Assembly (NCBI GenBank): GCA_963828165.1
Contig: CAWHDR010000001.1
Span: 128,001-192,000, forward strand
Direction of reading: 5' to 3'
Length of the DNA: 64,000 bases
Origin: an uncultured Chloroflexia bacterium
GTDB taxonomy: Bacteria; Chloroflexota; Limnocylindria; Limnocylindrales; CSP1-4
In this document: positions 9,620-33,647 of the stretch, piece by piece
Layout of the letters: each line of letters starts with the position of its first letter
Numbering within the stretch: the stretch's first letter is position 1
The notes under the pieces: model-generated
What the model was told of the DNA's origin: nothing
What the model saw: only the letters and a program-made list of their open reading frames with translations
Database searches by the model: none
Translations under genes and position numbers: made by a program

Positions 9620-10129
9620 CTAGCGCCGCTTGAACAGCTCCTGGTAGCGCTGTCGGAACATGTCGATCTGCGCCTGCGTATCGTGCCATTCGGCGGTATC
9701 GGGCGGGATCTCGATCATCCGGCGTTCCGCGGCGCGCCACTCCGCGAGGACCTCGCCCGCCGTGTAGACGGTCGGCGGTCGCTCGGTCGGACCGGCGACT
9801 GGCTCGAGCATGGCGAGGAATCGACCGTTCTCGATCGGCGTGATCCCGAACTTCACGCGGATGCTCGTGCCATCAAGCCGCCGCATCGTGGCCTCACCGC
9901 CGAGATCGGGTGAACCCTGGCTCTCCCATTGCTCGCGGAAGGCGGCTTGCGCTGCGGGATCCGTGGGCTCGGGTGACAGGGCGCCCGGCGGTAGTGCGCG
10001 CAGCTGCTCGAGCGTCAGGCCCAGCAGTTCGAGGGCAGCCGGACTCGCATCAGCGGTGGTGCCATCCGCATTGATGACCATGGTGGCCACTGACGATCCG
10101 ATTCCTCGTGCAGGCTCAAGCCCGGCCAT
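9620..10129 (-). CDS. PAS-domain protein with C-terminal WRxAER helical module
   Basis: INADG..DASPAALELLG and RRLDGTSIRV PAS motifs; start uncertain. Confidence 0.7.
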   Translation of the reverse strand: MAGLEPARGIGSSVATMVINADGTTADASPAALELLGLTLEQLRALPPGALSPEPTDPAAQAAFREQWESQGSPDLGGEATMRRLDGTSIRVKFGITPIENGRFLAMLEPVAGPTERPPTVYTAGEVLAEWRAAERRMIEIPPDTAEWHDTQAQIDMFRQRYQELFKRR

Positions 10130-10231
10130 TTCGGCGCGGTTCGTTCCAGGGTCTTCCGAGTGCCGGCTGAGTATGGCCGGGCAAACGACCGCTGCCAAGG
10201 GGTCGAAACCGGTCAGAAACGATCACGACGG

Positions 10232-11101
10232 TCAGGCAGGCGTGGGCGTCGCTGTCGGGGTCGGCGTCGGTGTCGGGGTCGGCGTGGGAACCGGCGTGGG
10301 TACGGGAGTCGGGCGTGGCGTCGGCGTGGGCGTCGGGCGCGGCGTCGGCGTGGGCGTCGGGCGCGGCGTCGGCGTGGGGGCCGGCGTGTTCTGCTCCCGC
10401 CACAGGAACTGTCGCAGCGTGAGGCCGCTCGCCCGGATCTTCGCAGCGCGTGTGCGGCCGACGTAGCGGTAATGCCACGGTTCGTACGTGTAGCAGGTGA
10501 CCGCGGTCTTGCCCTTGGGGTACGACATGATGAAGCCGTACTTGTGGGCATTGGCCTTCAGCCATGCACCCGCTTTGGTCGTGGCCCAGTCCGTGTAGTT
10601 CCAGGGCGCGCCACCACCGTAACTCCGGAGGTCGACGGTCGTACCGAGCTGGTGCTCGCTATGGCCGGCCCGGGCGCTCTCCTTGAGGGCGACGGCGTAG
10701 CCGTGAACGCGGACCCAGTAATCGAACGTCGACTTCTGGGTCGCATAGCTGCGATACGCCGACTGCACGGAGAACCGCGCACCAGCACGCCGCGCAGCCT
10801 CGGCCATCAGCTTGAGATCGGCGACGACGTGGCGTCGCACGAGGAAGCCGGAGTTGAGGCTCGCGTTGGAGGTCGAGCGAAGGTCGGTCGGCTTGTAGTT
10901 GCTCGACAGACGGTAGGTCTGGTCCAGGAGCGACTTGGCCCAGTCGCCGTAGAGCCGGTGTTTCGTCAGGGTGTCGGCGACCCGGCACGACGGCAACGCG
11001 GGCGCGGCCGAGACCGACACGGTGGCGGCAAACCCGGTCACCAGGACCGCGACGAGCAGCAGGGCGACGAGCCGGGGGCGTCGATCGTGGGCGGATGTCA
11101 T
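10232..11101 (-). CDS. Secreted M15B D-Ala-D-Ala carboxypeptidase with Pro/Thr tail
   Basis: SAYRSY, SARAGHSEHQLGTTVD, YEPWHYRYVG; signal peptide; (PT)n C-terminus. Confidence 0.9.
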   Translation of the reverse strand: MTSAHDRRPRLVALLLVAVLVTGFAATVSVSAAPALPSCRVADTLTKHRLYGDWAKSLLDQTYRLSSNYKPTDLRSTSNASLNSGFLVRRHVVADLKLMAEAARRAGARFSVQSAYRSYATQKSTFDYWVRVHGYAVALKESARAGHSEHQLGTTVDLRSYGGGAPWNYTDWATTKAGAWLKANAHKYGFIMSYPKGKTAVTCYTYEPWHYRYVGRTRAAKIRASGLTLRQFLWREQNTPAPTPTPRPTPTPTPRPTPTPTPRPTPVPTPVPTPTPTPTPTPTATPTPA

Positions 11102-11225
11102 GCCCCCACGATGTCAGCGCGCACCACCCCCGTCCACTCCCCCGAACGTACCGGCGGCCACCGGTCCCGAGGCGCCTGTCAGGTGGTCCCGAAGGGCCGA
11201 TGCGGTATCATCTCGGCCGCTCCAC

Positions 11226-11300
11226 TGGCGAGTGGCCAAGCGGTAAGGCGCCTGACTCTGGATCAGGAGATCGAAGGTTCGAATCCTTCCTCGCCAGCCA
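11226..11300 (+). tRNA. tRNA-Gln (anticodon CTG), encoded CCA
   Basis: TGGCGAG acceptor, CCTGA-CTCTGGA-TCAGG anticodon arm, GGTTCGAATCC T-arm, CCA end. Confidence 0.97.
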
Positions 11301-11519
11301 CACCACGTGCCTCAAGGCACGGGCCTGATGGGCTATCAAGAACGGCTCCGGCCCAGGTGTGAGGGGCGCGCGACTCGTGTTCCGCTCGGCCAGCGACCGC
11401 CGTCCCCCGCCACCAGCAGGCCGCGTGCAACGGCCTTCGCGCACGTATCTCGGACGATCCGCCTGGGACGATCAGTGAACCGCCGCTATGCTCAAGTTGA
11501 TGCTGCCGATGGTCCACCC

Positions 11520-12329
11520 ATGACCGACCCTCTCGTCCTGGAGGCCGCGGACGCCCGGCTGACCGTGAGCGCCATGGACGGCGGTCGGATGACATCGCTC
11601 GTGGTTCGGGGGTACGAGCTTCTCGTCACCACGGGCGACGGGCCGATCATGTGGGGCGCCTACCCGCTCGCGCCGTTCGCCGGGCGGATCCGCGACGGAC
11701 GGTTTCGGTTTGACGACATTGAGGTGGAGCTTCCGATCAATCTTCCACCCCACGCGATCCACGGCACCGTCTTCGAACGAGCCTGGCGCGTGGAAGGCCC
11801 CGACACGATATCGACGGACCTCGGCCCCGACTGGCCTTTCCGAGGGCGGGTCGTGCAACAGTTCCGCCTCGACGCCCACGGGCTCAACGTCGCACTCCGA
11901 CTCGAGGCCGAGGAGCGGATGCCCGCCACGATCGGCTGGCATCCATGGTTCGTGCGTCGGCTACTGGGAACCGATGCCGACGTCGAACTACGGTTCGAGG
12001 CGGAACGGATGTACGAGCGCGACCTATCCGGCCTACCGACCGGGCGCCTGGTCATGCCTAAACCGGGGCCATGGGATGACTGCTTCGTCGGCCTGCGCGC
12101 GGCTCCGCGGCTCACCTGGCCGGGCCACCTCGCTCTCGAGCTGCGATCGACGTCCGACCACTGGGTCGCGTACACGGAACTCGGCCACGCCCTGTGCGTG
12201 GAGCCCCAAACCGGACCTCCCGATGACGTCAACCTCGGAACGAGCGGCATGGTGGAGCGCGGCGACACCCTTGAGGTTGAGATGAGCTGGTTGTGGTGGT
12301 CTGCCGGGGAGCCGGCTCCGTCACGATAG
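11520..12329 (+). CDS. Aldose 1-epimerase family
   Basis: PFAGRIRDG, HAIHG, GWHPWF, CVEPQT. Confidence 0.88.
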   Translation: MTDPLVLEAADARLTVSAMDGGRMTSLVVRGYELLVTTGDGPIMWGAYPLAPFAGRIRDGRFRFDDIEVELPINLPPHAIHGTVFERAWRVEGPDTISTDLGPDWPFRGRVVQQFRLDAHGLNVALRLEAEERMPATIGWHPWFVRRLLGTDADVELRFEAERMYERDLSGLPTGRLVMPKPGPWDDCFVGLRAAPRLTWPGHLALELRSTSDHWVAYTELGHALCVEPQTGPPDDVNLGTSGMVERGDTLEVEMSWLWWSAGEPAPSR

Positions 12330-12348
12330 GAACACGTCCCAGTCGGAC

Positions 12349-13832
12349 TCACATCCGGTGGAAGGCCGGTGCCAGCGACGGGTAGAGGCCCCGATAGATG
12401 TCGAGGGCGTCCGCGTACTGCGCCGCGTCCGGTCCCGGCTCGGCGATCGGGGTGGCCCTGACCAGTGCTGCGCCGGCTGCCTCGACGGAGCCAAACCAGC
12501 CAGCCCCGACCGCCGCGAGCAACCCCGCGCCGTACGCCGCCCCCTCGGTCGTGTGGACGGTGGCGATCTCGGCCCCCAGGACATCGGCGAGGATCTGGCG
12601 CCAGAGCGGGCTCGCCGTTCCCCCACCGGATGCGCGCACCTGCGACGGCGCCGGCATCCCCGTCGCCAGCACCTGGTCGAGGCCGTCGCGCAGCCCGAAC
12701 GCCACGCCCTCCAGCACCGACCGGGTGAGATGCCGGCGGTCGTGGCCCACGGTCAGCCCGACGAACGCGCCACGCGCGAGCGGGTCGGCATGGGGGCTCC
12801 GCTCGCCGGTCAGGTGCGGGAGGAACAGCAACCCGTCACTCCCCGCCGGAACCTCCGAGGCCGGCCCGACCAGCTCCCCGAAGTCCACGCCCGGCGCCAG
12901 CGCATCGCGAAACCAGCGCAGGCTGCCGGCGGCTGACAACATCACCGTCATCAGGTGCCACCGATCCGGCACCCCGTGGCAGAACGCCTGGACCTGGCCG
13001 CGTGGATCGCGCAGCGGGGACTCGGTCGTGGCGAAGATGACACCCGACGTCCCGAGCGAGAGGGCGACGACGCCCGGAGTGACCGCTCCGACCCCGACCG
13101 CGTTCGCCGCCTGGTCGCCGCGCCCGCCACGACCGGCGTCCCCTCTCGCAGTCCGGTCACCGCGGCCGCCTCGGCCGTCACCGACCCGGTCACCGCGGGA
13201 CCCTCGAACGTCGGCGGGAGCCACACCGGATCGATCCCGACTGCCGCCACCACCTCCGCCGACCAGTCGCGGGCGGCGAGATCGAACAGGATCGTGCCGG
13301 CGCCGTCGGCCTTGTCGAGCGCGTACTCCCCGGTGAGCCGATGCCGCACGAAGTCCTTCGGCAACAGGACATGGGCGATCCGCTCCCAGACCGCAGGCTC
13401 GTGGTCGCGGACCCAGACGAGCTTCGGCGCCGTGAATCCGGTCAGCGCGTCGTTCCCAGTGATCTCGATCAGCCGCGCCGCGCCGACCGCCTCACGGATC
13501 GCGTCGCATTCGGCGGCCGTCCGTTGGTCGTTCCACAGGATCGCCGGCCGCAGCACCTCCCCCGCCCCATCGAGGAGCACCGCCCCGTGCATCTGGCCCG
13601 TCAACCCAACGGCCGCGATGTCCGCCCCGCCGACGCCGGTCGAGGCGAGAACGGACCGAACCGCCGCGATCGTCCCGTCCCACCACAGCCGCGGGTCCTG
13701 CTCGCTCCAGAGCGGCCGCGGGCTGTCGAAACCGTACTCGGCATGGCCGATCCCGACGACGGCGCCCGCCTCGTCGAGGATGACGGCCTTCGTCGCCGTC
13801 GTCGAAACGTCGATCCCTAGGACGTTGCCCAT
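12349..13832 (-). CDS. xylB: Xylulokinase, frameshift near 13123
   Basis: GIDVSTTATKA, GLTGQMHG, ILWNDQR; C-half DQAANAVGVG and LTGERSP in another frame. Confidence 0.88.
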
Positions 13833-13840
13833 CGCCGGGC

Positions 13841-15178
13841 TCAGCGGTCCGCGGCCCAGATCCGCTGGTTGACGAGGTTCTCCAGCCGCTCCTGACCACC
13901 CGAGACGCGACGAGGGTCGATGCTGCCGTTCGCGACTCGCGCCTCGAGCGCCGCGAGGTCGAGCGACCCGTCCATGATCGCGGCGCCGAGCGGCCCGTCC
14001 CAGCCCGCGTACCGCTGGTCACGGAGCTCGGCCAGTTCGCCACGCTCGACCAGGTCGGCCGCGACCAGCAGCGCCTGCGCAAGCGTGTCGAGCGCGCCGA
14101 TATGCGCGTGGAACAGGTCGGTGCGGTCCGTGCTCTGCCGGCGCAGCTTCGCGTCGAAGTTGAAGCCGCCCAGCCCCAGGCCACCCGACCGCAGGATCTC
14201 GAACATCGGCAGGACGAGATCCTCGACCGAGTTCGGGAACTGGTCGGTGTCCCAGCCGTTCTGCGGGTCGCCGCGGTTGGCGTCGACGCTGCCCAGCATC
14301 CCGTTGGCGACGGCGTACGCGATCTCGTGATGGAAGCTGTGGCCGGCGAGGGTCGCGTGGTTCGCCTCGATGTTCGTCTTGTACTCGTCGTCGAGGCCAT
14401 TGCGCGCCAGGAAGCCGTGCACCGTTGCCACGTCGTAGTCGTACTGGTGCTTGGTCGGCTCCATCGGCTTCGGTTCGATGAGCAGCTGGCCCTCGAACCC
14501 GATCCGGTGCTTGTGCTCGGCCACCAGGTGCAGGAAGCGCGCGAGCTGGGCGCCCTCGCGCCGGAGGTCCGTGTTGAGCAGAGTGTCGTAGCCCTCGCGA
14601 CCGCCCCACAGCACGTAGTTCTGGCCACCCAGTCGCTGGGTCACCTCGAGCATGTGCTTCACCTGGGCGGCGGCGTAGGCAAACACCTCCGGATCCGGGT
14701 TCGTGGCGGCGCCCGCCTGGTAGCGCGGATGCGTGAAGAGGTTCGCCGTGCCCCACAGGAGCCGCACGCCCGTGCGCTCCTGGTAGCCGGCCGCGTCGTC
14801 CACGAGCGCGTCGAGATTCGACCGGAAGTCCCCGAAGCCGGACCCTTCCGGCGCGACGTCGCGGTCGTGGAAGCAGTAGTACGGCACGCCGAGCTTGGTG
14901 AAGAACTCGAACGCCACCGCCATCCGGTTCCGGGCCGCATCCATCTCGTCGCCCGTGCCGTCGAGCCACGGCCGATCGAGCGTGCCGGTGCCGAACATGT
15001 CCGCGCCGGGCCAGGCCAACGAGTGCCAGAAACACACGCTGGGCCGGAGGTGGTCCTCCATCCGCTTCCCAAGGACGAGCCGGTCCGGCTGATAGACCTT
15101 GAAGGAGAGTGGGTCCGTCGAATCCAGGCCCCTGAAGGGGATCTGCCCGGCGACATCAGGGAAGAAGTCAGCAGCCAA
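13841..15178 (-). CDS. xylA: Xylose isomerase
   Basis: [33 protein letters not shown]. Confidence 0.97.
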
Positions 15179-15222
15179 TTTGTCAGCTCCTCATACGGGG
15201 CGTCCAGGCCCTGCCCATCGGG

Positions 15223-16758
15223 TCAGGATGTCGCGGCGTCGTCGCCGAGTGCCGCGGGTTCGAATCGCAGCATCGACCAGGAGACCGGGGGCAACGTGAC
15301 CGTGAGCAAGCCATCGACCGCGGTGGCCGGCGATACGCGCCGAGGCGCGACGCGCGCGGGTTCGTTAGTCGTGTTCCGCGCGTGGGGATCGTCGTCAGCC
15401 AGGACGACATGCTCGATGATGCGCATGCCGCCAAAGCCCTCCGAGGCCAGGTCCAGCGAGACCAGGTCCGTGGCGGAGCGGTTCACCATGAATGCCGAGA
15501 CACCACCGGAGGCCGCGTCGTACGTGGCGATCCCGTCCACAGCGGGCACGGGCCCGTGCGCGGCCGTGTCCACCATCGGCACGTCGAGCACCAGCGGCAC
15601 CACCGTTCCGATAGCGTGGCGGGCGGTCAGCGAGAACGGGAAGAAGGTGGTCTGGCGCCATGCCGCTCCGCCTGCCTCGGCTCGGATGGGCGAGATCGCG
15701 TTCACGAGCTGCGCGAGGCAGGCACACGTCACGCGGTCGGCGTGACGCAGGAGGGAGATGAGCACGCCACCCACGACGACGGCATCGGCGACCGAATAGT
15801 CGTCTTCGGACAGGCTCGGTGCCACCGGCCAGTCGCCGCGGGGTGGCCGCGCCTCGAAACGACGCAGGTACCAGACGTTCCACTCGTCGACCGACACCTG
15901 GATGCGCTTGGCGCTGCCGAGCGCGGCACCGACGCCATCCGCCGCCTCGACGACGGTGTCGATGTACCGGTCCAAGACGACGCCAGAGGCCAGGAAGCTG
16001 GCAAGATCACCCGCCTCGTCCTCCTCGAAATAGGCATGCAAGGAGATGTAGTCGACGAGGTCGTACGTGTGCTCGAGGACCGTCCGCTCCCACTCGATGA
16101 AGGTCGGCATCCAGCCGCCCGAGCTGCCGCAGGCCACCAGCTCGAGCCCCGGGTCAAGCATGCGCATCGCGCGCGCGGTTTCGGCCGCGACGCGCCCGTA
16201 CTCGCTCGCCGTCTTGTGCCCGATCTGCCACGGCCCATCCATCTCGTTGCCCAAACACCACATGCGGACGTCGTACGGCGCGCCGCTCCCGTTGGCGATG
16301 CGCTCGTCCGACCGCCTCGTGCCGCCGGGGAAATTCACGTACTCGAGGAGCCCGAGTGCCTCGTCCACGCCGCGCGTCCCGAGGTTGACCGCCAGCATCG
16401 GCTCCACGCCCGCCCGGGCGGCCCAGCGGGCGAACTCGTCCACACCGAACTCGTTGGTCTCCGTCGTGTGCCAGGCGAGATTCAGCCGGCGCGGTCGCGC
16501 TCCACGGGGCCCGATCCCGTCCTCCCAGCGATAGCCGGACACGAAGTTGCCGCCGGGATAGCGGACGACCGTGACGCCGAGCTCGCGGACGAGGTCAAGC
16601 ACGTCCTCGCGGAGCCCGTCGGCGTCGGCGCAGGGGTGGCCGGGCTCATAGATGCCGGTGTAGACGCACCGGCCCATGTGCTCGACGAAGGCGCCGAAGA
16701 GGCGGCGATGCACCTCGCCGATCGGTTCGCCGATCAGGATCTTGGCGCTGGCCTTCAC
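15223..16758 (-). CDS. abfA: Alpha-L-arabinofuranosidase GH51
   Basis: FVEHMGRCVYTG, RYPGGNF, WCLGNEMDG, DEWNVW. Confidence 0.95.
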   Translation of the reverse strand: MKASAKILIGEPIGEVHRRLFGAFVEHMGRCVYTGIYEPGHPCADADGLREDVLDLVRELGVTVVRYPGGNFVSGYRWEDGIGPRGARPRRLNLAWHTTETNEFGVDEFARWAARAGVEPMLAVNLGTRGVDEALGLLEYVNFPGGTRRSDERIANGSGAPYDVRMWCLGNEMDGPWQIGHKTASEYGRVAAETARAMRMLDPGLELVACGSSGGWMPTFIEWERTVLEHTYDLVDYISLHAYFEEDEAGDLASFLASGVVLDRYIDTVVEAADGVGAALGSAKRIQVSVDEWNVWYLRRFEARPPRGDWPVAPSLSEDDYSVADAVVVGGVLISLLRHADRVTCACLAQLVNAISPIRAEAGGAAWRQTTFFPFSLTARHAIGTVVPLVLDVPMVDTAAHGPVPAVDGIATYDAASGGVSAFMVNRSATDLVSLDLASEGFGGMRIIEHVVLADDDPHARNTTNEPARVAPRRVSPATAVDGLLTVTLPPVSWSMLRFEPAALGDDAATS

Positions 16759-16783
16759 GACGCGCCCCCGATCCTGTCCCAGT

Positions 16784-17677
16784 TCATTGCGCGCCCGTGC
16801 CCATCGACGCAGTGCCCTCCATGAAGTGCCGTCGCAACACCACGAACAGGAGGATGACGGGCAACGTCGCAAGCGCCGTCCCGGCCAACACGAGGTCGTA
16901 GGACACCTTGTACTGGTTCACCAGGGATGCCAGGCCCACGGCCAGCGGCATGTTCTCCGGCTTGCGGAACACGATCAACGGCCAGAGCAAGTTGTTCCAG
17001 TACTCCAGCGCGAACAGGATGAACATCGTCGCCAGGGCGGGCCTGACGTTGGGCAGCACGACCGACCAGAACATCCGGTATTCGCCTGCCCCATCGACGC
17101 GCGCCGCGTCGAGCATCTGGGTGGGCAGGCCGAGCATGTACTGGCGCATGAAGAAAAGCCCGATGGGATGTGCGGCCAACGGGACGACAGCGCCGAAGTA
17201 CGTCTCGACCAGACGCAGGTTCACGATCAGCAGGAAGAGCGGCACGATCAAGAGCTGGAAAGGCAGCATCTGGGAGGCGAGCACCCCAACGAAGATCACC
17301 GAGCGCCCTCGGAAGCGGAACCTCGCCAGCGCATAGCCGCCCATCGCGCACAGGGATACGGTCAAAGTGGCATACCCGAGCGACTGCACCACCGAGTTGA
17401 AGAACCAATGGACATACGGCGTCTGGTCGAGCAGGCGGGCGTAGTTGTCGAGCGACAGGTCCGTCGGCAACAGCGAGATGTTCGCGCCGAAGATATCGCT
17501 CTGCGGCCTCATCGAGCTCAGGAACATCCAGTACATGGGCACGACGAAGATCACCGCCAGGAGAACGAACAAGATGAGGAGCCCGAGACTCGGGCGACGT
17601 CGGCTGGGCAGCCTTCCTCGCGCTCGCGTTCCCATCAGCCTGACCAGATCGATCGGCGTGCGTCCGGGGGTGCTCAC
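16784..17677 (-). CDS. Carbohydrate ABC permease
   Basis: DAARVDGA EAA loop, WNNLLWP. Confidence 0.92.
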   Translation of the reverse strand: MSTPGRTPIDLVRLMGTRARGRLPSRRRPSLGLLILFVLLAVIFVVPMYWMFLSSMRPQSDIFGANISLLPTDLSLDNYARLLDQTPYVHWFFNSVVQSLGYATLTVSLCAMGGYALARFRFRGRSVIFVGVLASQMLPFQLLIVPLFLLIVNLRLVETYFGAVVPLAAHPIGLFFMRQYMLGLPTQMLDAARVDGAGEYRMFWSVVLPNVRPALATMFILFALEYWNNLLWPLIVFRKPENMPLAVGLASLVNQYKVSYDLVLAGTALATLPVILLFVVLRRHFMEGTASMGTGAQ

Positions 17678-18566
17678 CGCTCTGCCCGCCATCCCCCGAA
17701 GAATCGGAATTGAATGAGCGCGACCACCAGGACGACCACGGACAGGAGGACGCCCATCGCGGCGGCTGCACCGAAGTCGAAGGACGTGAATGCCGTCTTG
17801 TAGATCAGGAGGGCGATGGTCATGCCGCCGCCCCCGGGCGAGTTACCGGCGTTCCACAGCACGAATGGCTCGACGAACACCTGGAACCCGCCGATGATCG
17901 ACAGCACGACGACGAACAGGATCGTCGGCTGGATCATCGGCAGCGTGATGCTGCGGAAGATCCGCCAGCTGCCGGCGCCGTCGAGCGCCGCGGCCTCGGT
18001 GATCTCTCGCGGGATGTTCACCAGGCCCGAGCTGAAGTACAGGATGTTGACCCCCGTCCAGCGCCAGGCGGCCATGATGATCAGTGACGGGACAGCCAGG
18101 TCGGCGGCCTCGAGCCACGGCGGAGTCGGGAGACCCACCGATCCCAGTGCGGTGTTCAGGAGACCGTCCTTGGCGAGCACGATGCGGAAGATGATCGCCA
18201 CCGTCACCAGCGAGGTCAGTGCCGGCAGGAACAGTGAGACGCGGAAGACGGTCTGCTTGACGACTCGACCGCTGTCGAGCAATGCGGCGAGGATCAAGGG
18301 CAACGGGATCAGGATCGCGAGCGTCCCGAGCGTGTAGAGCACCGTGTTCAGAAGGCATTTCCCAGCCGGGGATCTTTGATCACGGTGGCGTATTGCGAGA
18401 TCCCGACCCACCCGGTCATGTCCGTGCCTTCCCACTGTTGGAGGCTCATGATCACCGCGTGGACGGAGGGCCAGACGCGGAACACGATGAACACGAGCAG
18501 GAACGGCGCGAGGAAGACATAGGGCGCCAGCCGCCGGTCCAGGAGCACGGAACGCGCTCGGGTCAT
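17674..18566 (-). CDS. Carbohydrate ABC permease, frameshift near 18350
   Basis: PYVFLAP N-part plus EAAALDGA C-part in different frames. Confidence 0.85.
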
Positions 18567-18584
18567 CGACTGTCCTCGAATGAC

Positions 18585-18615
18585 ACCGGCGCCGCGCAGG
18601 GTGCGCGGCGCCGGT
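18585..18615. terminator. GC-rich stem-loop between binding protein and permease
   Basis: ACCGGCGCCGCGCA-GGG-TGCGCGGCGCCGGT perfect 14-bp stem. Confidence 0.65.
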
Positions 18616-18647
18616 CGGTTTCGCTACTGATGGCTATCCGCACCCAT

Positions 18648-20020: not shown

Positions 20021-20129
20021 ATGCCCTCCTAAGTTGGCGAGGCTATGCCGCGTCCATTTCCTCACTCGGGACGCTGAAGCGCCGACACGATGCTCGCCGA
20101 CGGTAAACCTAGCACATGCTACGTGTGCA

Positions 20130-20143
20130 CGCAAGCGTGTGCA
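20130..20143. promoter_or_regulatory. Putative LacI-family operator
   Basis: CGCAAGCGTGTGCA upstream of ABC operon; similar sites at 20385 and 25728. Confidence 0.5.
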
Positions 20144-20291
20144 TACAAAACGCGTGCCTCTGGGAACGGCCTCCTTGCTGGCTGCGTTCTCGGTGCCGTC
20201 ACGAGCACGAAGCCCTTCGTTGCCGCCCGTCGTGACCTTCCTCGCCGCTCATGGTCCGCGGCCGCAGCACGGCGGCGATGGGAGACGGATC

Positions 20292-23750: not shown

Positions 23751-23980
23751 TCTCCAATCTTTGGCTCGGAGACCACGCGATCTCGAAGGAGCGGGATTCC
23801 GCTAGATGCGGCAGACGCTGTCCGTGAACGCCCACGAGTGCACGAGGAGGGCGCAGGCCTGCACGGTGTCCGAGCGAGCGAGGAGGTTGCTCGGCTGGTG
23901 ACTCTGAGAGACCGGTCGTCGTCCCCTTCGGCACGCCACCCGCACTGCCCGTGCCGCTAGGTGCCAGGGACCCGGTGATC

Positions 23981-24015
23981 GGGGTTGCTGGCAGAACCCC
24001 TCGGCCAGCAACCCC
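23981..24015. terminator. Stem-loop downstream of short esterase
   Basis: GGGGTTGCTGG...CCAGCAACCCC. Confidence 0.55.
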
Positions 24016-24052
24016 TTCGACTCCTGACGGATAGAGCTGATCAGACTCCCAT

Positions 24053-25534
24053 CTACAACCAGAACCCGACGTTGAAGATGATCTTCTCCGCCTTCGTGCG
24101 AAGGCCTGCTGCCTGCTCTGCAGTCAGCTTCCCTTCGCTCTCCAGCGAATCGACCTGAACGACAAGCCCGTTCAGCACGTCGATCATCTCGCTCCTCTGA
24201 TCCTTGAGGAACAACTTGTACGCCTGGTCGAGCTTGACCGTGAGGGCGTTACGGACCCCCTTGTTCAGGCTCGTGCTTGCAACGTCACTCTTGAGGATCT
24301 CGATCTTGTCGTTGATGAACACTTCCGGGTGCCACAGATAGTCCCTGGCGAACGTCGTGAACAACTGGTTCCAGGAATTGAAGTCGTGGGCACCGGCAAC
24401 GACCACGTTCTTGGCGAACGCGTTGGTCCGCGCGGCTACTTGCGTGGCGTTCGGCAGCCCGAAGTCCCATCGTCCCCCGCCCCACACGATGTAGGGCACG
24501 CCCAGGTTCGCCGCGTTGTTGTTGACGCTCACGCCGCCGCTCCACGGGCCGTAGTACCCGAACTTCGTGGCGTCGAAGTTGATGAGGTTGGACGTGACGA
24601 TCCCGCCCGCCGAGAGACCGGCAAACGCCCGATCCGTCGGATGCGTCGAGACGTTGTAGTTGCTTTCCACGAACGGCAGGACGATGTTGCGTAGGTTGGG
24701 ATACCCCTGATTGGCGGCACCGAGGTAGTTGGTGTTCGTCGTAACGACGATCGCTGGCTGGGTGAGGCCGTCCTGGAGCAGGTTGTCCATGATGACCGGT
24801 ACGCTGCCGATGTTCATCCAGTCGGACTGATCCTGGCCGCCGCCATGCTGCATCCAGATGGTCTTGTACGGCTCGGCGCGCTCGGCGTCATAGCCGGGCG
24901 GCAGGTACACGCCCAGCGTCCGTGTGGCGGTACCGATCTGGATCGGCACGTAGCTCCACGTACCCTTCGGCGAGTCGGGCCTTGGGTTCTCGATCACACG
25001 CGCCGCCAGCGGGCCGTAGTTCTGCTTCTCCGCGTCGTACGGCACGTTCACCTTGTTGAAGGCGCGCCGGGCGGTCCCGGTCAGGCCGTCGGGAGCGTAG
25101 ATCGGCGGATTGGCGGGATCGGTCACCCACAGGTTGGTGTTGTTGTTGACGTAGAACCAGTACTGGTTGGCGCCGGCCGCCAACGGCACATCGGTGACCC
25201 AATAGCCGTCGCCGACGTTGGTCATCTGGACGTCATATCCGCCACCGCCGCGCATCAGACCGGGCCGATACTGGGACGGCTGGTAGATCGTCGGACTGGT
25301 GGGATTCTCCCAGTCCCGCAACAGGATGTCGGCCACGAACCGGACGCTGGTGGCGGTCGGGTTGTGGTAGACGAAGTGTCCGGTGTAGCCGGTCGGCGAA
25401 GCCGGATCCTGGATGATCGTCGGCCCTGGGGTCAGATCCACGTCCTCGGCCAGCGCCGCCGCGGGCGAGAGACCCAGAACCATGGCTGACGAGAGTACCA
25501 AAGCCGAGATTCGTTTGAGGTTTTTCAAACCCAT
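24053..25534 (-). CDS. Secreted CE1-like esterase with C-terminal helical (FIMAH-like) domain
   Basis: Signal peptide, YLPPGYD, AFAGLSAGG, AHDFNSW; RBS AGGAGG. Confidence 0.8.
   Translation of the reverse strand: MGLKNLKRISALVLSSAMVLGLSPAAALAEDVDLTPGPTIIQDPASPTGYTGHFVYHNPTATSVRFVADILLRDWENPTSPTIYQPSQYRPGLMRGGGGYDVQMTNVGDGYWVTDVPLAAGANQYWFYVNNNTNLWVTDPANPPIYAPDGLTGTARRAFNKVNVPYDAEKQNYGPLAARVIENPRPDSPKGTWSYVPIQIGTATRTLGVYLPPGYDAERAEPYKTIWMQHGGGQDQSDWMNIGSVPVIMDNLLQDGLTQPAIVVTTNTNYLGAANQGYPNLRNIVLPFVESNYNVSTHPTDRAFAGLSAGGIVTSNLINFDATKFGYYGPWSGGVSVNNNAANLGVPYIVWGGGRWDFGLPNATQVAARTNAFAKNVVVAGAHDFNSWNQLFTTFARDYLWHPEVFINDKIEILKSDVASTSLNKGVRNALTVKLDQAYKLFLKDQRSEMIDVLNGLVVQVDSLESEGKLTAEQAAGLRTKAEKIIFNVGFWL
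25044..25491. repeat. 448-bp exact direct repeat, copy 2
   Basis: Identical by eye to 23263-23710. Confidence 0.92.
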
Positions 25535-25796
25535 CCTCCTTCTGAACAACGCGCTATCTGAGCATTCCCGGTACTCGCCGACGTCGAGTCCCGCGGGACA
25601 ACCGCGACCTTCGCTTGTACAGTTGGGCGTCGTGAACCACGCCATCTCAAGGAGAGAAGGGATCTATCGGATGCCGTCCGAACGAAGTGAACGGGGACTC
25701 CTGTGGTGACGGGAGCTGTGCAACGCGTGCAAGCGTATGCGGTCAGTGGTATGCTGTCAGTCGAATGCTGATGCTGTCAAGCCCCAACGTCTAGCT

Positions 25797-26912
25797 GTGG
25801 CCACCACGCCGACTCCCGGACCGCCGCCGCAGGCCACCATGCGGGACATCGCCCGTGCGGCCAGGGTCTCCCAGAGCACCGTGTCGCGGGTCTTGAACGC
25901 GGCCTCCTCGTCGATCCCGATCAGCGAGGAGACACGCGAACGAGTCCTTGCCTCGGCGCGTCGCCTTGGGTACAGCCCCAACCCGCTCGCCAGGGGCCTG
26001 CGAGGAGCTCCCACCATGCTCCTCGGTGTCATCGTTCGTGACATCACCGACCCGTTCTTCGCCGGTCCCATCGAGGCCGTCTCGATCGAAGCCGCGCGCC
26101 GTGGCTACAACGTTGTCCTGGGGCACGCCCACGGTCGAGCCGATGAGGCGATGGTGCTCCGATCGGCGCTGGAGACGCGACACGTCGACGCGATCCTCGT
26201 GCTCGGTGACATGACCGATCAGCCGCGCTTGATCGACGATCTCCAGAATTGCCGGGTCCCCGTCGTGGCACTCTGGCAAGGCACTGCGCTCCACGGATTG
26301 CCCATGGTCAACGTGGATAACGCCACGGGAGTCTCCCTCGCGCTTGACCACCTTCTCGCGCTTGGTCACCAGCGCATCGCCTTCGTGAGCGGTCGTCCGC
26401 TTGGAGACATCGAAGAGCGCCGCACCGCGTTCGAGAGCCGGATGCATGCCGCAGGGCTCGAGATCGCCGATGGGTTCGTGCAGCATGTCTCCAACGACCC
26501 AGCCGGTGGCGAGCAAGCGCTCGTGGCACTCTTGAGCCTCGCGTCCCGACCGACGGCGGTCGTCTGCTCGACCGATCATCTCGCGATCGGGGTCCTTCAC
26601 GGCGCCGCGGGACTGGGACTCGGTGTGCCTTCGGACCTTTCGGTCACGGGATTTGACGATCTCCCGATCTCAACTTTCACCGTACCTGCGCTGACGACGG
26701 TCCGAATGCCGATTTGCGAGATGTCCGCCCTTGCCGTTCAGATCGCCTTCGACCCAAGATCTGCTGAGCCGACCGTCGAGGTACTGCGACCAGAGTTCGT
26801 GATCCGAGAGTCGACCGGGCCGGCTCCAGACGTGGACGACCGGTCCAGTCCTCGCCGAGCGGGATCCGGCACCGGGCGCAGGAAGAGAGCCACACCGAGA
26901 TCCCCCGCGTGA
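25797..26912 (+). CDS. LacI family transcriptional regulator
   Basis: [41 protein letters not shown]. Confidence 0.95.
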
Positions 26913-28414
26913 AGCCTCTGGCGGGACTCGAGGTGTGGTTCGTCACGGGCAGTCAGGACCTGTATGGCGATGACGCGCTGCGGCAGGTCGCCGATCACGC
27001 CATGCGGATCGCAGAAGCCCTCGATGCCGCCCTTGCGATCCCCCTACGTGTCTGCTTCAAGCCCGTCGTGACGTCACCCGAGAACATTCGGGCGGTTTGC
27101 CAGCAGGCGAACGCGTCCGATTCCTGCGTCGGGGTGATCGCCTGGATGCACACGTTCTCGCCAGCCCGAATGTGGATCGGGGGGCTTCAGGACCTGCAGA
27201 AGCCCCTCCTACATCTCCACACGCAGTTCAACCGTGATCTTCCCTGGGCGGAGATCGACATGGACTTCATGAACCTCAATCAGTCGGCCCACGGCGACCG
27301 CGAGTTCGGATACCTGCAGACCCGACTTCGCCGCTCGCGCAAGTCGGTCGTCGGGCATTGGCAGGATCCATACGTGGCAGACCGCGTCGGGGCATGGGCC
27401 CGAGCTGCCGCGGGTTGGAATGAGGCCCGGCGCCTTCGGGTGGCGCGCTTCGGCGACAACATGCGGCACGTTGCGGTCACCGAGGGTGACAAGGTCGAGG
27501 CCCAGATCCGCCTCGGCGTCGCGGTCAACGGCTATGGCACGAGTGATCTTGTCGAGGCGGTCCGAGACGTCCCGCCGGAGGCCGTTGAGCGGCTGCTGGA
27601 AGCGTACGACGACGAGTATGTCGTGGCCCCGGAGCTCGGGCCATCGGGTGCGCGACGAGCGGAACTGAGGGAGGCGGCGCGGATCGAGGCTGGCCTCCGG
27701 GCGTTTCTCGAAGCTGGGGGGTTCGGTGCCTTCACGGACACGTTCGAGGATCTCGAGGGGCTCGTGCAGCTGCCCGGCATCGGCGTCCAGCGACTGATGG
27801 CCGAAGGCTACGGGTTCGGTGCCGAGGGGGACTGGAAGACGGCGGTGATGGTCCGCCTCGCGAAGGTGATGGCGACCGGACTGCCCGGCGGAACGTCCTT
27901 CATGGAGGACTATACCTACGACTTCGATGTCGACGGGCCCAAGGTGCTCGGTGCGCACATGCTTGAAGTCTGCCCGTCGATCGCAGCTTCGCAGCCCACC
28001 TGCGAGATCCACCCGCTCTCCATCGGCGGTCGCTCCGACCCCGTGCGACTGGTGTTCACTGCTGCGCCCGGACCGGCCGTCGTCGCATCGCTGATGGATC
28101 TTGGCGATCGGTTCCGCATCGTGGCCAACGAGATCGACCTGGTGGACCCGAAAGCGCTCCTACCGCGGTTGCCCGTAGCGCGAGCTGTCTGGAAACCCCG
28201 GCCGGACTTCAGGACCGCAGCCGAGGCCTGGCTGCTCGCTGGCGGTTCACACCACACCGTGCTCACACAGCCGCTCACTCGAGAGCACTTCGAGGACTTC
28301 GCAGAGATGGGTGGGCTCGAATTCCTCTCGATCGACGCCGACACACGCATGACGACGTTCAAGAACGAGCTTCGTTGGAACCAGACGTACTACCGCCTTG
28401 CCGGCAGCCTGTAG
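26909..28414 (+). CDS. araA: L-arabinose isomerase
   Basis: [31 protein letters not shown]. Confidence 0.97.
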
Positions 28415-28563
28415 TCAACTGGGGGACACGGAATACTTCACCGCTGGCGCGCAGGGATGTCTCCTCCTTCCTGCGCCGCCTGCGGCTCTGCAGTGCCCGA
28501 TCACGCAGTTTCGGCGGCTGCGACCTCTCGCGTGGAGGTGACAGTCACTGACCCCCGAGCGCG

Positions 28564-30144
28564 TTAGCGCAAGGCCTGGACAGCGGCTCGCTCGATCGCG
28601 AGCCCGGCTCGATGACGGACGAAGAACGCGTCGAATCCGGCAACGTCGCGCGGGTCCGGGGCGACCGGCGCCCCGATGCTCCCGGCGATCAGCTCGTCAA
28701 GGAAGTCGGGCAGCGACAGGTCCGGATCGTCGCGGAGAAGGTACGCCGCCAGGAGGGCCATGCCCCATGCGCCGCCTTCGCTGGCCGTCGCCGGGATGCT
28801 CACGGGCACGTTGAGCGCGGCCGCCATCATCCGTTGGCCCGTGTCCGCGCCCTTGAAGAAGCCGCCATGGCCGCGGATCTGGTCGATGGCAACACCCTCG
28901 TCCCGGGTGAGGATGTCCAGTCCGGTCCGGAGCGCGCACAGCGATGCGAAATACTGGGCGCGCATGAAATTCTCGAGCGTCAGCCGGGCATCCTGGTTGC
29001 GGGCGAACAGCGGCCGGCCCTCCGTGAAGCCCGTCATGTGCTCGCCTGACACGTAGTTGATCGCGAGCAGGCCGCCAGCATCGGGCTCGGCCGCGGCCGC
29101 CAGCGGTAGAATCCGCTCATAGAGTTCGTCGGAGGTCAGCTCGGCGCCGAGCGATCTGCCGACCTGGCCGAACAACGCGACCCAGGCGTCCAGGTCGGAT
29201 GACCCGTTGTTGGCGTGGGCCATTGCGGCCGGCGAACCGTCCGGCGTGACCACGATGTCGATCTCTTCATGGAGGCGCGAGAGGCTCGACTCCAGCACGA
29301 TGACCGCGAAGTTCGATGTGCCGGCGGATACGTTGCCCGACCTGGGGCGAACCGCGTTGGTCGCGACCATGCCGGTGCCGGCGTCTCCCTCCGGCGGGCA
29401 CATCGGGCTGCCCGCCTCGAGCATGCCTGACGGGTCCAGCAGGCGCGCCCCGTCCGTGGTCAGCCTCCCGGCAGGAGCGCCCGCGGGGAGGACGTCGGGC
29501 AAGACGTCACGCAGGGTCCGGCCGAAGCCGCGCGGTGCGACGAGCGCGTCGAACGCAGCCATTCGTGGGCCGTCCCAATCGCGGGTGACCGGGTCGATCG
29601 GGAACATGCCCGAGGCCTCGTTGAGGCCCACGACATGCTCGCCGGTCAGCTTCCAGTGGACGTAGGCGGCGAGCGTCTTGAGGTGGGCGAGCTGCCCCAC
29701 GTGCGGCTGCCCATCGAGGATGGACTGGTACAGGTGGGCGATGGTCCAGCGCTGGGGCACCACGAAGTCCAACAGGGGTGTCAGCTCCGCGCACGCGGCG
29801 CCGGTGATGCTGTTGCGCCAGGTCCGAAACGGGACCAGCAGCTCGCCCTCGCGGTCCAGCGCGATGTAGCCATGCATCATCCCGCTGACGCCCAGTGCGG
29901 CCACCGTACACAGGTCCACCCGGTATCGTGCCCGGACGTCGTCGACCAGCGATGCGTAGCACGCGGCCAGGCCCGACCAGACATCGGCAAGATCGTAGGT
30001 CCAGACGCCGTTCCGCAGCTTGTTCTCCCAGGCATGAGACCCGCCGGCGAGCGGGGTGCCGTCGGGGGCCAGCAGGGCGGCCTTGATACGCGTCGACCCG
30101 AACTCGATTCCCAGGATGGCGCCACCCGACGCGATCAACTCCAT
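28564..30144 (-). CDS. araB: FGGY kinase, L-ribulokinase type
   Basis: [35 protein letters not shown]; adjacent to araD and araA. Confidence 0.85.
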
Positions 30145-30289
30145 GCTGATTCCCCTGTGCCGCTCGTTTGCGGCCAAGCGTAGCCGGTCCCGGAACGTGC
30201 CGATGTCCGCCCAGAGTTTCGAGTGCCTCGGGTCGGCGGACTGCCGAACGGGGACCACGACGTGCTTTCTCCTGCGTCAGGAGGGCGCG

Positions 30290-30937
30290 TCAGTGCTGGC
30301 CGTAGACCTTCGTGTAGCGGTCGTGGAGCCGTGCGACGGCGTCGGGCGGGATCTCGTCCGGTGTGCCGAGCTGGAGCGCCATGAACACCGTCGCCGCGAT
30401 ATCCTCCGTCATCACAGCGGCCTTGACCGCCGCCGATGCCGTTGGCCCGACCGTGAACACGCCGTGGTTCTTGAGCAGGATCGCCGGTGATCGACCGATC
30501 CCCTCCACCACCAACTTCCCGATTCCCTCGTCGCCGATCAGCGCGAAGCCCGCACATGGGATCTCGCCACCGAACTCGTCAGCGTGGGCCGTGAGGTAGA
30601 CCGGGATCGGGCGTCCGACGGCCGCGAAGGCCGTGGCGTAGCGTGAGTGGGTATGGACGATCCCGTTGATGTCCGGCCGGTGACGGTAGATGTAGAGGTG
30701 GCTAAGCGTGTCCGAGCTGGGTGACAAGCCGCCTTCGATGACGTTCCCGTCGGGATCGACGATGACCATCGACGCCGCCGTGAGGTCCGGGTAGCGAACA
30801 CCAGACGGCTTGATCGCAACCAGCCCGGTCCCCGGGTCCCGTGCGGACACATTGCCCCCGGTCCAGCGGACAAGGTCGTTCGCTGGGAGTTCCGCGTGGA
30901 GCTCAGCCAACTGCTCCCGGAGCGCCTCGATGAGCAT
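30290..30937 (-). CDS. araD: L-ribulose-5-phosphate 4-epimerase
   Basis: WTGGNVS, IKPSGV, PSSD, VHTHS, KNHG. Confidence 0.92.
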   Translation of the reverse strand: MLIEALREQLAELHAELPANDLVRWTGGNVSARDPGTGLVAIKPSGVRYPDLTAASMVIVDPDGNVIEGGLSPSSDTLSHLYIYRHRPDINGIVHTHSRYATAFAAVGRPIPVYLTAHADEFGGEIPCAGFALIGDEGIGKLVVEGIGRSPAILLKNHGVFTVGPTASAAVKAAVMTEDIAATVFMALQLGTPDEIPPDAVARLHDRYTKVYGQH

Positions 30938-31751
30938 CAGCCCGCGCCCGCCTGTGCGCTGGCGCGGAGCTCCGGCGCGCTGCTCAGCGGTGTGCCGTCG
31001 GTCGAAGGCGGCATCATGGGGCATGCGCCGAAGCCGAAACCTGGCCCAACGACGCCCGCATGGTCGACCCCGGAATGAACGGGCGCCCTGGGCGAACGTC
31101 TCGCGGAAGACGCTGAGGTAATCATCGGCATCCTGTAGGGCCCAAGGGGCCGTTCTGGTCGCAGCTATCGAGCGGGTGGTGCTCGTCCATCAGCCTGCAT
31201 GTCACAGACCCGCCGTCGTTCGCACGCTGGGTGCTGCCGGGGGCGTCCCTGAGGGCACGACCGGATTCCGTCAAGAAATCCCCTCCGATCCCGTCTTGGC
31301 CACATGCGTCCTTCCTCGGCTGCATGCCCGACCGCTATCGCGACAGTACCATCCGGCCACGCGTTCCAACCAAGTGCGATGGTACTGACGGAGGTGACAC
31401 GTCGTGGAGTAGCTTGCTCAGAATGTGCGCCCTGCATGAGACCCGCGGTCGATCCCGTGGACCTCGTTGACCGCCAACGTGTCTACTGCCCCGATGGGTC
31501 GCCACGCCCTGGCCGCGACGCGGAGCAAGGCTTCCAGCCCAGCCCACCCGGAGCCAGGGCTAGCGCCGTGCTACAGGATTCTGGAGGGATCCCAGGGCTG
31601 CAACATGGTTGACGCGGGCCCAGAGGGTTAACGGAACCGCGGAGGTCACGGTGAGGACCGAATGCCACCCAAAATGGACGCGACCCGGTCGATCCGACGC
31701 TCTCGGACGACTGAAATTCTACGAGCGGTCATACAATTGGGGGAGCGCCGT

Positions 31752-31820
31752 GAGTTCGCTTGATCCCTATGCGAATTCGGAAGTGCGCATGACTCTTCTG
31801 GGAGTGTTCGCCTGACACTC
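31752..31820 (+). repeat. Array of GTGCGCCTGACTCT-like motifs upstream of att copy 2
   Basis: Motif cores at 31761, 31790, 31813. Confidence 0.6.
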
Positions 31821-31889
31821 CCGGATTCAGACGGCGCGAGGCGTCGGGCTGAGTTCGAAGATCGGCTGGCGAATTCAGATTCACGTCGT

Positions 31890-31938
31890 CTGACTCTGGA
31901 TCAGGAGATCGAAGGTTCGAATCCTTCCTCGCCAGCCA
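31890..31938 (+). repeat. attR-like copy of tRNA-Gln 3' half (49 bp)
   Basis: Identical to 11252-11300. Confidence 0.95.
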
Positions 31939-32030
31939 ACACCACGACCTGTTGGGGTGTAGAGGAAAACGACCACAACGTCTTGTGGAGGAGCCGTTTT
32001 CCCCGGGCGTGGAGCAGGATCGGCGGTTCC

Positions 32031-32132
32031 TGAGAATCAGGCGCACTCGTTTTGAGCGCGAAACGGTCGTTTGTGCGCCTGACTCTTCCCCTCTTGTGCG
32101 CCTGACCCTTCCCGATAAATGACCTGACTCCG
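32031..32132. repeat. GTGCGCCTGA motif array, one inverted plus three direct
   Basis: Inverted copy 32031-32046; direct cores at 32080, 32103, 32125. Confidence 0.65.
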
Positions 32133-32429
32133 AGTTGAGATCGACGTTTCCAGGCTCCGTAACGGAGGCCTTTCGTCTCGTCCGCCAAGCCGGATCCGGG
32201 CTGTGGCGTCCACCTCGATGATCGCGGCTTCTTTACGTATCTGGCGAGGTCGGTTGGGTACCAGCAGAACCCCTCAGATCTCACTCCGCATCCTCTGGGC
32301 ACCGCGGTCTCGGCCGAGGCATCGACTCACACAACGTTGACTTCCGCAGCGTCGAGGTCGGACGGGCATGCCCGGGCGGCGCAGCGAACCGCTGGTCGCG
32401 AATAAGGTCGCCTCGGAAGTGGCCTCGAC

Positions 32430-32621
32430 CGCGTTGAGCTTGTCGCGCGTGGCGCTCCACCCGGCGAGTTCGCGTAGCCCAGCCTCGGAGGGAGGGCCCG
32501 GGTCTGCGGAGTAGGTGACGAGCGTCAATCCTGGATCGGCCGGCAGTTCCATCAGCTCGTAGCCCAGAGTCAGGTCACCGACGAGCGGATGGTGGAGGTG
32601 TTTCGTTCCCGAGCGGTGGTT
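32430..32621 (-). pseudogene. C-terminal fragment of MmyB-like (XRE) regulator
   Basis: HRSGTKHLHHPLVGDLTLGYELMELPADPGLTLVTYSA. Confidence 0.7.
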
Positions 32622-32900
32622 CGGGAGCGCGAGCGCGAGTCCCATCGCGTATGCGTCCGGAGTCAGACGGGCCGAAATAAACTCGGGGCCAACGACAACG
32701 ATGCGTTCGTAGAATGCGTTTAGCAGCTCCGCGCGGCCGTCGGAGGTGGCCATTGCCCACGTCTCGGGCAGTGCTCGCAACTTCGCGATCACCTTGTCGG
32801 CCGAAGCCACCGCATGAGTCGGCGCACGTTCCTCGGCAATGGCGAGCTCGGTCCGCAGGGTGGCCATCCTTGCCAAGTAGGTCCGGATCGTCGAGCTGAC
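32622..32900 (-). pseudogene. Possible C-terminal fragment of large serine recombinase
   Basis: Coiled coil then LPETWAMATSDGRAELLNAFYERIVV, resembling LSR C-termini; no catalytic N-terminus. Confidence 0.45.
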
Positions 32901-33380
32901 CAGCGGCCGGCTCCCGCCCTGAGGACAGGCCCTCCCCGTGCACGTCGCCAATCGCTAGTGACGGGTCGCGTACCCGAGCAGAACCGGCGAGGAGCCGCTC
33001 GCCGGTGACCCCAAGTATCGTCTGCGTCCTTCGTCGGCGATCACGTCGAGCACCGCCAGCCCGATGGCGGCGGACACCGGGTTCCCACCGGACGTGTCTT
33101 GTTACTGGGGCTGGCCTCCGCGATCACGGAGCCAGGCAGAGATCAACGCGGGCCAGCGTCGCCTCCGGCGGGCCGTGTCGAGACGTTGGGTATTCGATCG
33201 GCGAGACATCGGGCGAGCTCCTGCGAGGCCGCGCCAGTCCGCGGTCCGATCTCAATCGGTCGCGCCGGGAGGGGGATCGACGCGAAAGAAATGACGAATG
33301 AAGACAGGCCAACAGGCGAGGCACTCGGCCAGTTTGCATTGCCCGAGTACCATCGGGCCAGGGTCGGCCCAGGTCGATCG

Positions 33381-33647
33381 ATGTCACAGATCGAGACCCC
33401 GATGCAGAAACTGGTCGCCGAGATCATGGCGGCATGGCGCCGCGCCGAGCGGCTGACGGCTACGCTTCCCGCCGACAGCCTCGAGCACGAGGCCGCGCAA
33501 CGGGCCTGCAGCCGTCTCCGGGACGCGTACCAGGATCTGACGCACTCGGGCGTCGCGGCCGCTCTCACGGCGGCGGAGGCCAGGATGCTCCTTCGGGACG
33601 CAGCTAGCGACGTCGACGTCGCCCCGGACGCAGACACGGAGCCCTAG
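33381..33647 (+). CDS. Small hypothetical protein, stand-alone WRxAER module
   Basis: 15/40 ungapped identity to C-terminus of the PAS protein at 9620; start could be 33291. Confidence 0.65.
   Translation: MSQIETPMQKLVAEIMAAWRRAERLTATLPADSLEHEAAQRACSRLRDAYQDLTHSGVAAALTAAEARMLLRDAASDVDVAPDADTEP

Follow-up and report, generated by a model that had tools for sequence, protein, structure and literature searches.

In sensor kinases, the DHp (HisKA) domain is an α-hairpin that lies directly behind the sensor domain and assembles with another copy of itself into a four-helix bundle. The photochemistry of LOV sensors depends on a flavin-adduct cysteine in a conserved LOV motif. Short LOV proteins, such as RsLOV and PpSB1-LOV, consist of one PAS core followed by helices only, with no enzymatic or DNA-binding effector; the portion of PMC4335406 that deals with such effector-less proteins describes helical extensions and holds that they are thought to signal via partner proteins. 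RsiG is a small helical protein with conserved Glu and Arg residues on paired antiparallel helices; according to the sections on it in PMC8325347, RsiG binds cyclic di-GMP (c-di-GMP) through Glu/Ser/Arg/Gln/Asp motifs and then holds a sigma factor, and it exists in free and in duplicated (fused) forms, the single-motif forms being dimeric. The present analysis concerns a helical hairpin, here called the WRxAER (WR) module, of which two copies are encoded in a stretch of high-GC DNA of 64,000 nucleotides (the window) from an uncultured Chloroflexia bacterium of the Limnocylindrales (assembly GCA_963828165.1, contig CAWHDR010000001.1, positions 128,001 to 192,000). Limnocylindria are abundant Chloroflexota of soil and freshwater, for which we know of almost no experimental genetics. 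To judge by its conservation, the WRxAER segment represents a genuine, self-contained 47-residue domain family of soil Chloroflexota that had no name before. It is portable, occurring free, behind a PAS domain, or behind another hairpin, c9, and thus in at least three architectures. The two genes of the window and their modules are:

9620–10081, minus strand: PAS protein with a C-terminal WRxAER hairpin, 153 residues from M40; open reading frame (ORF) open up to 10198
9635–9775, minus strand: WRxAER module, sensor-fused copy, 47 residues; profile matches at E 1.4e-26 and 2.2e-25
33402–33647, plus strand: free WRxAER protein, 81 residues; three helices, the hairpin and a conserved third helix
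33399–33539, plus strand: WRxAER module, free copy; profile matches at E 9.5e-24 and 4.9e-23

The PAS ORF (9620-10198, minus strand) encodes 192 residues and matches PAS_9 of Pfam (E 4.5e-6) and TIGR00229 of NCBIfam (E 2.2e-6). Homologues place its likely true start at M40 (window 10081), and that of the small ORF (33381-33647, plus strand) at M8 (window 33402). The PAS protein stops four residues past the module, and relatives of the free WR protein are mostly 73–81 residues long. A sequence-only reading of this DNA had aligned the tail of the PAS protein with the small ORF, without gaps and with 15 of 40 positions identical, and had described the segment as an unnamed module existing in sensor-fused and stand-alone forms. 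A recount on the translations confirmed the alignment, both ORFs are as described, and both forms are present. BLASTP extends the match to 16 of 47 identities, again without gaps (E 6e-7 in a single pairwise comparison). Homologue searches returned 378 matches at E<=0.01 for the free protein (410 candidates), with 72–100% identity among the 120 matches listed, and 201 matches at E<=1e-3 for the PAS protein (1231 candidates). The invariant columns are identical in the two sets of homologues; those of the PAS ORF, W154, R155, A156, A157, E158, R159, R182 and Y185, do not vary across 17 homologues, and 34 sequences drawn from both families align without a gap over 47 columns. When the 47-column profile was run against the six-frame translated genome (43,860 open segments), the two window copies were recovered at E 2e-25 and 5e-23.

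The module forms a large family. A profile built on 11 module instances, all taken from window and genome DNA, was searched against about 15 billion proteins clustered at 50% identity, each cluster entering with a single representative (1.84 billion in all); it gave 1036 matches at E<=1e-3, of which 90 reach E<=1e-10 but none E<=1e-30. The search for further homologues that the sequence-only reading had proposed yielded them, and no Pfam model matched the module. Conservation was calculated from the 150 best representatives, which are mutually at most 50% identical. In helix 1, V or I occupies module position 9 (94%), L position 10 (90%), W position 13 (99%), R position 14 (97%), A position 16 (95%), E position 17 (98%) and R position 18 (99%); the loop carries G/D, S/T, P and E at positions 26–29; and in helix 2, L or F occupies position 40 (98%), R position 41 (97%) and Y position 44 (97%). 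The signature can therefore be written as [VI]-L-x-x-W-R-x-A-E-R for helix 1, P-[GD]-[ST]-P-E for the loop and [LF]-R-x-x-Y-x-x-L for helix 2. The polar residues are, by these columns, conserved beyond the needs of a hairpin fold. The free WR gene itself is under purifying selection, as indicated by a low proportion of nonsynonymous differences (pN 0.08–0.12) against that of synonymous ones (pS 0.51–0.64) in comparisons with five relatives (L046, L047, L051, L052, L057) and by a median pN/pS of 0.36 (329 pairs). Contigs of 226–232 nucleotides from two metatranscriptome libraries, belonging to two studies, lie wholly inside this gene, a weak hint at transcription that may reflect DNA in the library. 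A promoter and terminator scan of 33000-35600 gave no signal above shuffled sequence.

The designation as unnamed held in each of the libraries searched. Pfam returned no family for the free protein at E<=1 and none for divergent module members; NCBIfam returned nothing for the free protein (best E 0.13); PHROGs and PADLOC gave no match for the two module proteins of the window; and a search of PDB sequences with the WR profile gave a best E of 0.1 and nothing natural. Among the 150 best representatives, 133 match nothing in Pfam at E<=1e-3, and the sole Pfam match in 13 is the upstream PAS domain; the other four comprise one with a fragment of LGT, one with a receiver fragment, one with Med21 below threshold and a false positive, a TPR/caspase protein matched in short repeats. 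The ESM Atlas held no usable match for the free protein (0.78), and for a fusion of c9 and the WR module (c9-WR) only unnamed Chloroflexota clusters of 138–139 residues. A full-text literature search found the motif WRxAER, also as WRAAER, WREAER and WRRAER, in no paper, and none that joins Limnocylindria with "PAS domain".

A helix-loop-helix is predicted by AlphaFold2 in the free and PAS contexts alike. In the model of the free protein, helices span residues 7–28, 34–55 and 64–79, with a mean predicted local distance difference test score (pLDDT) of 73.9 and about 90 in the hairpin. In that of the PAS protein (mean pLDDT 79), the PAS core is followed by helices 147–163 and 169–189 (ORF numbering). 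Hydrophobic residues recur at a spacing of 3–4 in helix 1 (columns 6, 9/10, 13, 16, 20 and 23) and in helix 2 (columns 33, 37, 40, 44 and 47), indicating that R14 and R18 would lie on the outside of helix 1. From the same spacing, W13, A16 and Y44 are predicted to form the core, with E17 and R41 flanking it. Foldseek found nothing for the free-protein model in the PDB at E<=1e-3; the PAS model matched many PAS and LOV structures, including RsLOV (4hj3, 4hj6) over 154–164 columns that take in the C-terminal helices (E 2e-6).

These likenesses to short LOV proteins, the DHp domain and RsiG are analogies, and none of the three is a relative. The 153-residue PAS protein shares with short LOV proteins the arrangement of a single PAS core and helices. 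It differs in having no cysteine, so that LOV photochemistry is impossible, and in a hairpin that lacks a sequence relative in the PDB and that also occurs free or fused to non-PAS partners. Like DHp, the WR hairpin sits directly behind a sensor domain; unlike in a kinase, there is no HisKA or HATPase_c match, the module has no conserved His, and the protein ends after the hairpin. The resemblance to RsiG extends from the paired helices to the position of the free copy, 780 nucleotides upstream of a sigma factor gene, an adjacency that is not conserved. In contrast to RsiG, neither the two module proteins of the window nor any of the 150 representatives carries the c-di-GMP motif E(X)3S(X)2R(X)3Q(X)3D, and the sigma factor of the window is of the extracytoplasmic function (ECF) type and not of the WhiG type. 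As a conserved small domain, the module also resembles the domains of unknown function collected in Pfam and NCBIfam, where no model matches it.

The architectures of the family are best seen in the same 150 representatives, in classes that are approximate because many metagenome proteins are fragmentary or have over-long start calls. PAS region and module are combined in 29, c9 region and module in 11; in 74, the protein has 115 residues or fewer and the module starts within the first 25; in 17 more of this size, over 25 leader residues precede the module; and the remaining 19 are other proteins longer than 115 residues. Typical sizes are about 75 residues for the free form, 153 for PAS plus module and 140 for c9 plus module. 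The genome of the window holds a third copy (C1:1695253-1695393; E 7e-8 to 2e-16 by profile), which makes up the C-terminal end of a roughly 144-residue protein whose N-terminal half is the distinct hairpin c9. A candidate fourth copy (C1:890589-890777) reached only E 0.013–0.02 and was not counted.

The third copy belongs to a three-gene cassette outside the window (C1:1694986-1695998; L004:1228-2270), composed of the c9-WR fusion, c4 and a free c9 of about 79 residues. The cassette starts 22 nucleotides past a tRNA-Pro gene, the 3' end of which has no second copy in the genome, and so bears no island mark. c4 is a 70-residue protein with a conserved W-Y-V-x-R-x-G at its C-terminal end, and c9 proteins are highly acidic, with net charges from -4 to -17. 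Neither c4 nor c9 matched a family library (Pfam, NCBIfam, PHROGs, PADLOC) or a natural PDB protein; the c9 profile found only designed coiled coils among PDB sequences. These are two further unnamed small-protein families, linked to the WR module by fusion and gene order. Among the 26 public loci with a free WR gene, c4 adjoins that gene in 7 (L052-L056, L060, L061) and c9 in 5 (L052-L056). c4 and c9, and not a sigma factor, are the only recurrent partners found.

The distribution of the three families was followed in two samples. In 60 other genomes of the window's own family, representing 49 genera, the WR module was found in 20 (1–5 copies) in a scan that scored 116 of up to 223 first-look candidates per genome; c4 was found in 18 (1–6 copies) and c9 in 20. 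WR and c9 occur together in 18 genomes, WR only in 2, c9 only in 2 and neither in 38. A module match lies 40–110 nucleotides downstream of a same-strand c9 match in 16 of the 20 WR-positive genomes, which makes the c9-WR fusion the most frequent form. Across the class, 120 other genomes were sampled; the free WR protein was found in 4 (including 2 of 5 from the same genus), the PAS-WR protein in 8, and c4 in 11, all of the window's own family. These low counts show the module to be accessory and patchy. The 26 free-protein records comprise 17 titled uncultured Chloroflexia, 5 titled Candidatus Limnocylindrales, 3 titled Chloroflexota and 1 titled Candidatus Saccharimonadales; the proposed lineage specificity is thus apparent in 25 of 26 titles, and the module has so far been seen only in Limnocylindria-type Chloroflexota. 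The Saccharimonadales record (L050) is a metagenome bin whose free WR protein is 69–71% identical to Chloroflexota ones, perhaps through mis-binning or gene transfer. A phylum-wide profile scan, limited to 23 first-look candidates per genome, missed known carriers and its negatives were not used; its weak matches outside the class were to sigma-70 hairpins, an ECF sigma factor, an SDR and similar proteins, and no claim is based on the two unpublished genomes among those with weak matches (G173, G227).

What the analysis shows is a family with its conservation, architectures and gene neighbours, together with a prediction of two helices; most economically, the WR module would be a protein-protein interaction hairpin that joins a further hairpin to complete a helical bundle, a reading to which we give a probability of about one half. 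The partner hairpin could come in cis (as with c9 in the fusion), from another module copy in a homo- or heterodimer, or in trans. Formation of the bundle would display an invariant outward Arg-Arg surface (Arg14/Arg18) to a shared partner. The hairpin of the PAS protein would serve a short sensor without an enzymatic effector as its output and as its dimerisation element.

Several observations weigh against this interpretation. Bundle formation, the exposed arginine face and any partner are what we infer, and the division into core and surface derives solely from column spacing. The predicted template modelling score of the free protein is only 0.52, with a pLDDT of about 60 in the third helix, and the root-mean-square deviation between the PAS model and RsLOV is 10.8–11.7 Å, meaning that only the topology is alike. 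The profiles of c9 and WR show no detectable kinship (hhalign probability 0.2%). The co-occurrence of WR and c9 is inflated by the fusion protein and by the shared ancestry of the genomes. Finally, in three sister-family genomes (97–99% complete) that have PAS-WR, the profiles found no c9 or c4, so that c9 cannot be an obligatory partner. A complex prediction for PAS-protein residues 40–192 with free-protein residues 8–88 gave a score of 0.00; it was run without controls and counts neither way.

Among the alternatives, the one that survives best treats the module as part of a small-gene cassette, c4 followed by a c9 hairpin, c9-WR or free WR, that behaves like a toxin-antitoxin system or some other two-gene unit, selfish or regulatory; c9 would be neutralised or mimicked by the WR hairpin, with the PAS-fused copy as a variant under sensor control. 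The gene order is suggestive, since c4 is directly followed by c9 at 13 loci in 11 of the 18 c4-positive genomes of the family sample, and in this genome as well (C1:1695547-1695995), c4 is followed by the c9-WR fusion in G381 and G431, and in L060 the free WR gene lies 9 nucleotides downstream of c4. The proteins are all small and without a family, the genes are patchy and often multi-copy as counted above, and the combination of two small, adjacent, co-oriented and patchily distributed genes is that used to recognise type II toxin-antitoxin systems. Set against this, neither PADLOC nor Pfam nor NCBIfam gave a match to a toxin or antitoxin family, searches of plasmid, phage and IMG/VR collections turned up no copy of the module, neither the free WR gene nor the PAS-WR gene of the window has c4 or c9 beside it, and the sister-family genomes just mentioned have PAS-WR with neither gene found. 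We regard a cassette of this kind as a possibility, if an unlikely one.

Another explanation would make the invariant set of Trp, Arg, Glu, Arg, Arg and Tyr a site for a ligand, such as a nucleotide second messenger, or for a nucleic acid. All architectures share a near-invariant set of three arginines, a pair of aromatics and a single glutamate, which exceeds what a hairpin requires, and RsiG offers a precedent for a small antiparallel helical pair of this kind. Genes of nucleotide-cyclase type lie nearby, at 35531-36706 and 38173-39072; they are, however, outside the islet that carries the free WR gene (described below) and are not conserved neighbours. Together with the lack of the RsiG motif and of any likeness to a solved ligand-binding protein in the PDB sequence search or by Foldseek, this renders a binding site quite improbable.

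The sequence-only reading had favoured a sigma factor as the target, noting that the free copy stands on an island near an ECF sigma gene without an anti-sigma gene. The elements involved are:

11226–11300, plus strand: tRNA-Gln (CTG) gene, the integration site (ARAGORN)
11301–31890, no strand: 20.6-kb inserted segment with pentose/arabinan utilisation genes (Pfam)
31891–31938, plus strand: exact repeat of the 3' 48 nucleotides of tRNA-Gln; boundary between the 20.6-kb insert (its right end) and the islet (its left end)
32274–32951, minus strand: gene debris, an ORF in which only the final third of an MmyB-type ligand-binding domain is left (PF17765, positions 113–168 of 168)
33969–34265, plus strand: 98-residue ORF with two hydrophobic stretches and no family; accompanies the sigma gene in close relatives
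34426–35076, plus strand: ECF sigma factor (Sigma70_r2, r4_2); best NCBIfam match to the SigK subfamily at 120 bits, cut-off 226
35414–35461, plus strand: second exact repeat of the 3' 48 nucleotides of tRNA-Gln; right end of the islet

The three exact direct repeats of the tRNA-Gln 3' end mark two tandem insertions of 20.6 kb and 3.5 kb. The position on an island was borne out, in that the 3.5-kb islet, which holds the MmyB-type debris, the free WR gene, the 98-residue ORF and the sigma gene, is bounded by exact 48-nucleotide repeats of the tRNA-Gln 3' end. The description of the sigma gene was equally accurate: it is of the ECF type and no anti-sigma gene lies behind it, because the islet ends 338 nucleotides downstream. 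No integrase was found in the 22 open segments of 31000-33420. In four related loci (L040, L041, L042, L044), an intact tRNA-Gln lies 0.9–1.4 kb upstream of the free WR gene and the 20.6-kb segment is missing between them; L040 and L041 also have a partial tRNA-Gln repeat behind the sigma gene. The order in L041 and L042 is ADH, PAS-WR, VanY, tRNA-Gln, MmyB debris, free WR, 98-residue ORF and sigma, indicating that the 24-kb gap between the two module genes of the window is due to the later insertion of the 20.6-kb segment. These are the only 2 of 26 loci in which the PAS gene is within 7 kb of the free WR gene.

A few features of this region stand apart from the module. L041 has an additional repeat 3.6 kb past the sigma gene, and related genomes hold different cargo at the same tRNA. 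Pfam matches in the 20.6-kb insert include aldose epimerase, FGGY kinases, a xylose-isomerase-like protein, arabinofuranosidase, ABC permeases, esterases, AraA and an AraD-like aldolase. One FGGY sugar-kinase gene (12349-13832, minus strand) is split into overlapping FGGY_N (12951-13832) and FGGY_C (12349-13224) parts, which suggests a frameshift or an assembly error. The C-terminus of a VanY-type D-Ala-D-Ala carboxypeptidase (10232-10400, minus strand) carries a long Pro-Thr repeat tail of TPTP/RPTP units. Of the two cyclase-type genes just outside the islet, the first matches DUF2652 and SRPBCC and the second Guanylate_cyc; a cyclase homologue is found near the sigma gene in L041 and L045.

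The link from the module to the sigma factor did not stand up to comparison across loci. That the free and PAS-fused copies titrate or partner-switch the ECF sigma factor at 34426 would fit the order of free WR gene, 98-residue ORF and sigma gene in the window, the missing anti-sigma gene, and the position of the PAS gene 2–4 kb upstream of the free WR gene in L041 and L042, indicating that the three genes were once close. The sigma gene and the 98-residue ORF, however, flank the free WR gene in only 6 of the 26 loci. These are the closest ones, in which the small proteins are 94–100% identical and the shared order is simply inherited. At the remaining 20 loci neither gene turned up within 7 kb, and no neighbour cluster recurs there, sigma included, apart from c4 and c9. 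Sigma titration is thus not supported. The module is moreover common in genomes and architectures without a nearby sigma gene, the two module proteins of the window show no Pfam match to an anti-sigma domain and no HxxxCxxC motif, and no STAS or HATPase_c domain occurs among the ORFs of 8563-39072 scanned against Pfam. Taken together, control of this sigma factor by the WR module is very unlikely.

It is hardly conceivable that the similarity merely reflects generic coiled-coil or hairpin composition with no domain family behind it, since, against a loop and flanks (AER-x-L-x-x-L-P-P-x-S-P-E) that match a hairpin in primary sigma factors of about 405–414 residues from another Chloroflexota family (E 5e-5 to 8e-4, 19–22 positions) and a single false-positive TPR protein in the top 150, there stand seven positions conserved at 95–99% over both helices, the 90 matches at E<=1e-10 with a 47-position model, and the gapless alignment of the free-protein and PAS-protein families. 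In the primary sigma-70-type proteins concerned (about 402–416 residues; L011-L016, L018-L021, L029), the hairpin lies between regions 1.2 and 2, and its turn, AAERKLATLPPDSPEA, resembles the module loop over 19–22 positions. This likeness is probably that of a convergent helix-capping turn.

What emerges is a domain family of about 1000 clusters at 50% identity, named in no library and with a precise signature. For proteins annotated until now as "hypothetical protein", this yields a defined set of candidate pairwise interactions, and for short PAS sensors without an effector domain, a candidate output mechanism. The window itself is a clear case of serial integration at tRNA-Gln, which has parted genes that are neighbours in related genomes. 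A more far-reaching proposal, which we consider doubtful, is that WR, c9 and c4 form a small-protein exchange network of the Limnocylindria, in which alternative four-helix bundles would be assembled in cis and in trans. If true, PAS-fused and island-borne free hairpins would compete for the same partners, and signalling would be built from swappable helical hairpins, without a kinase, a nucleotide or a DNA-binding domain.

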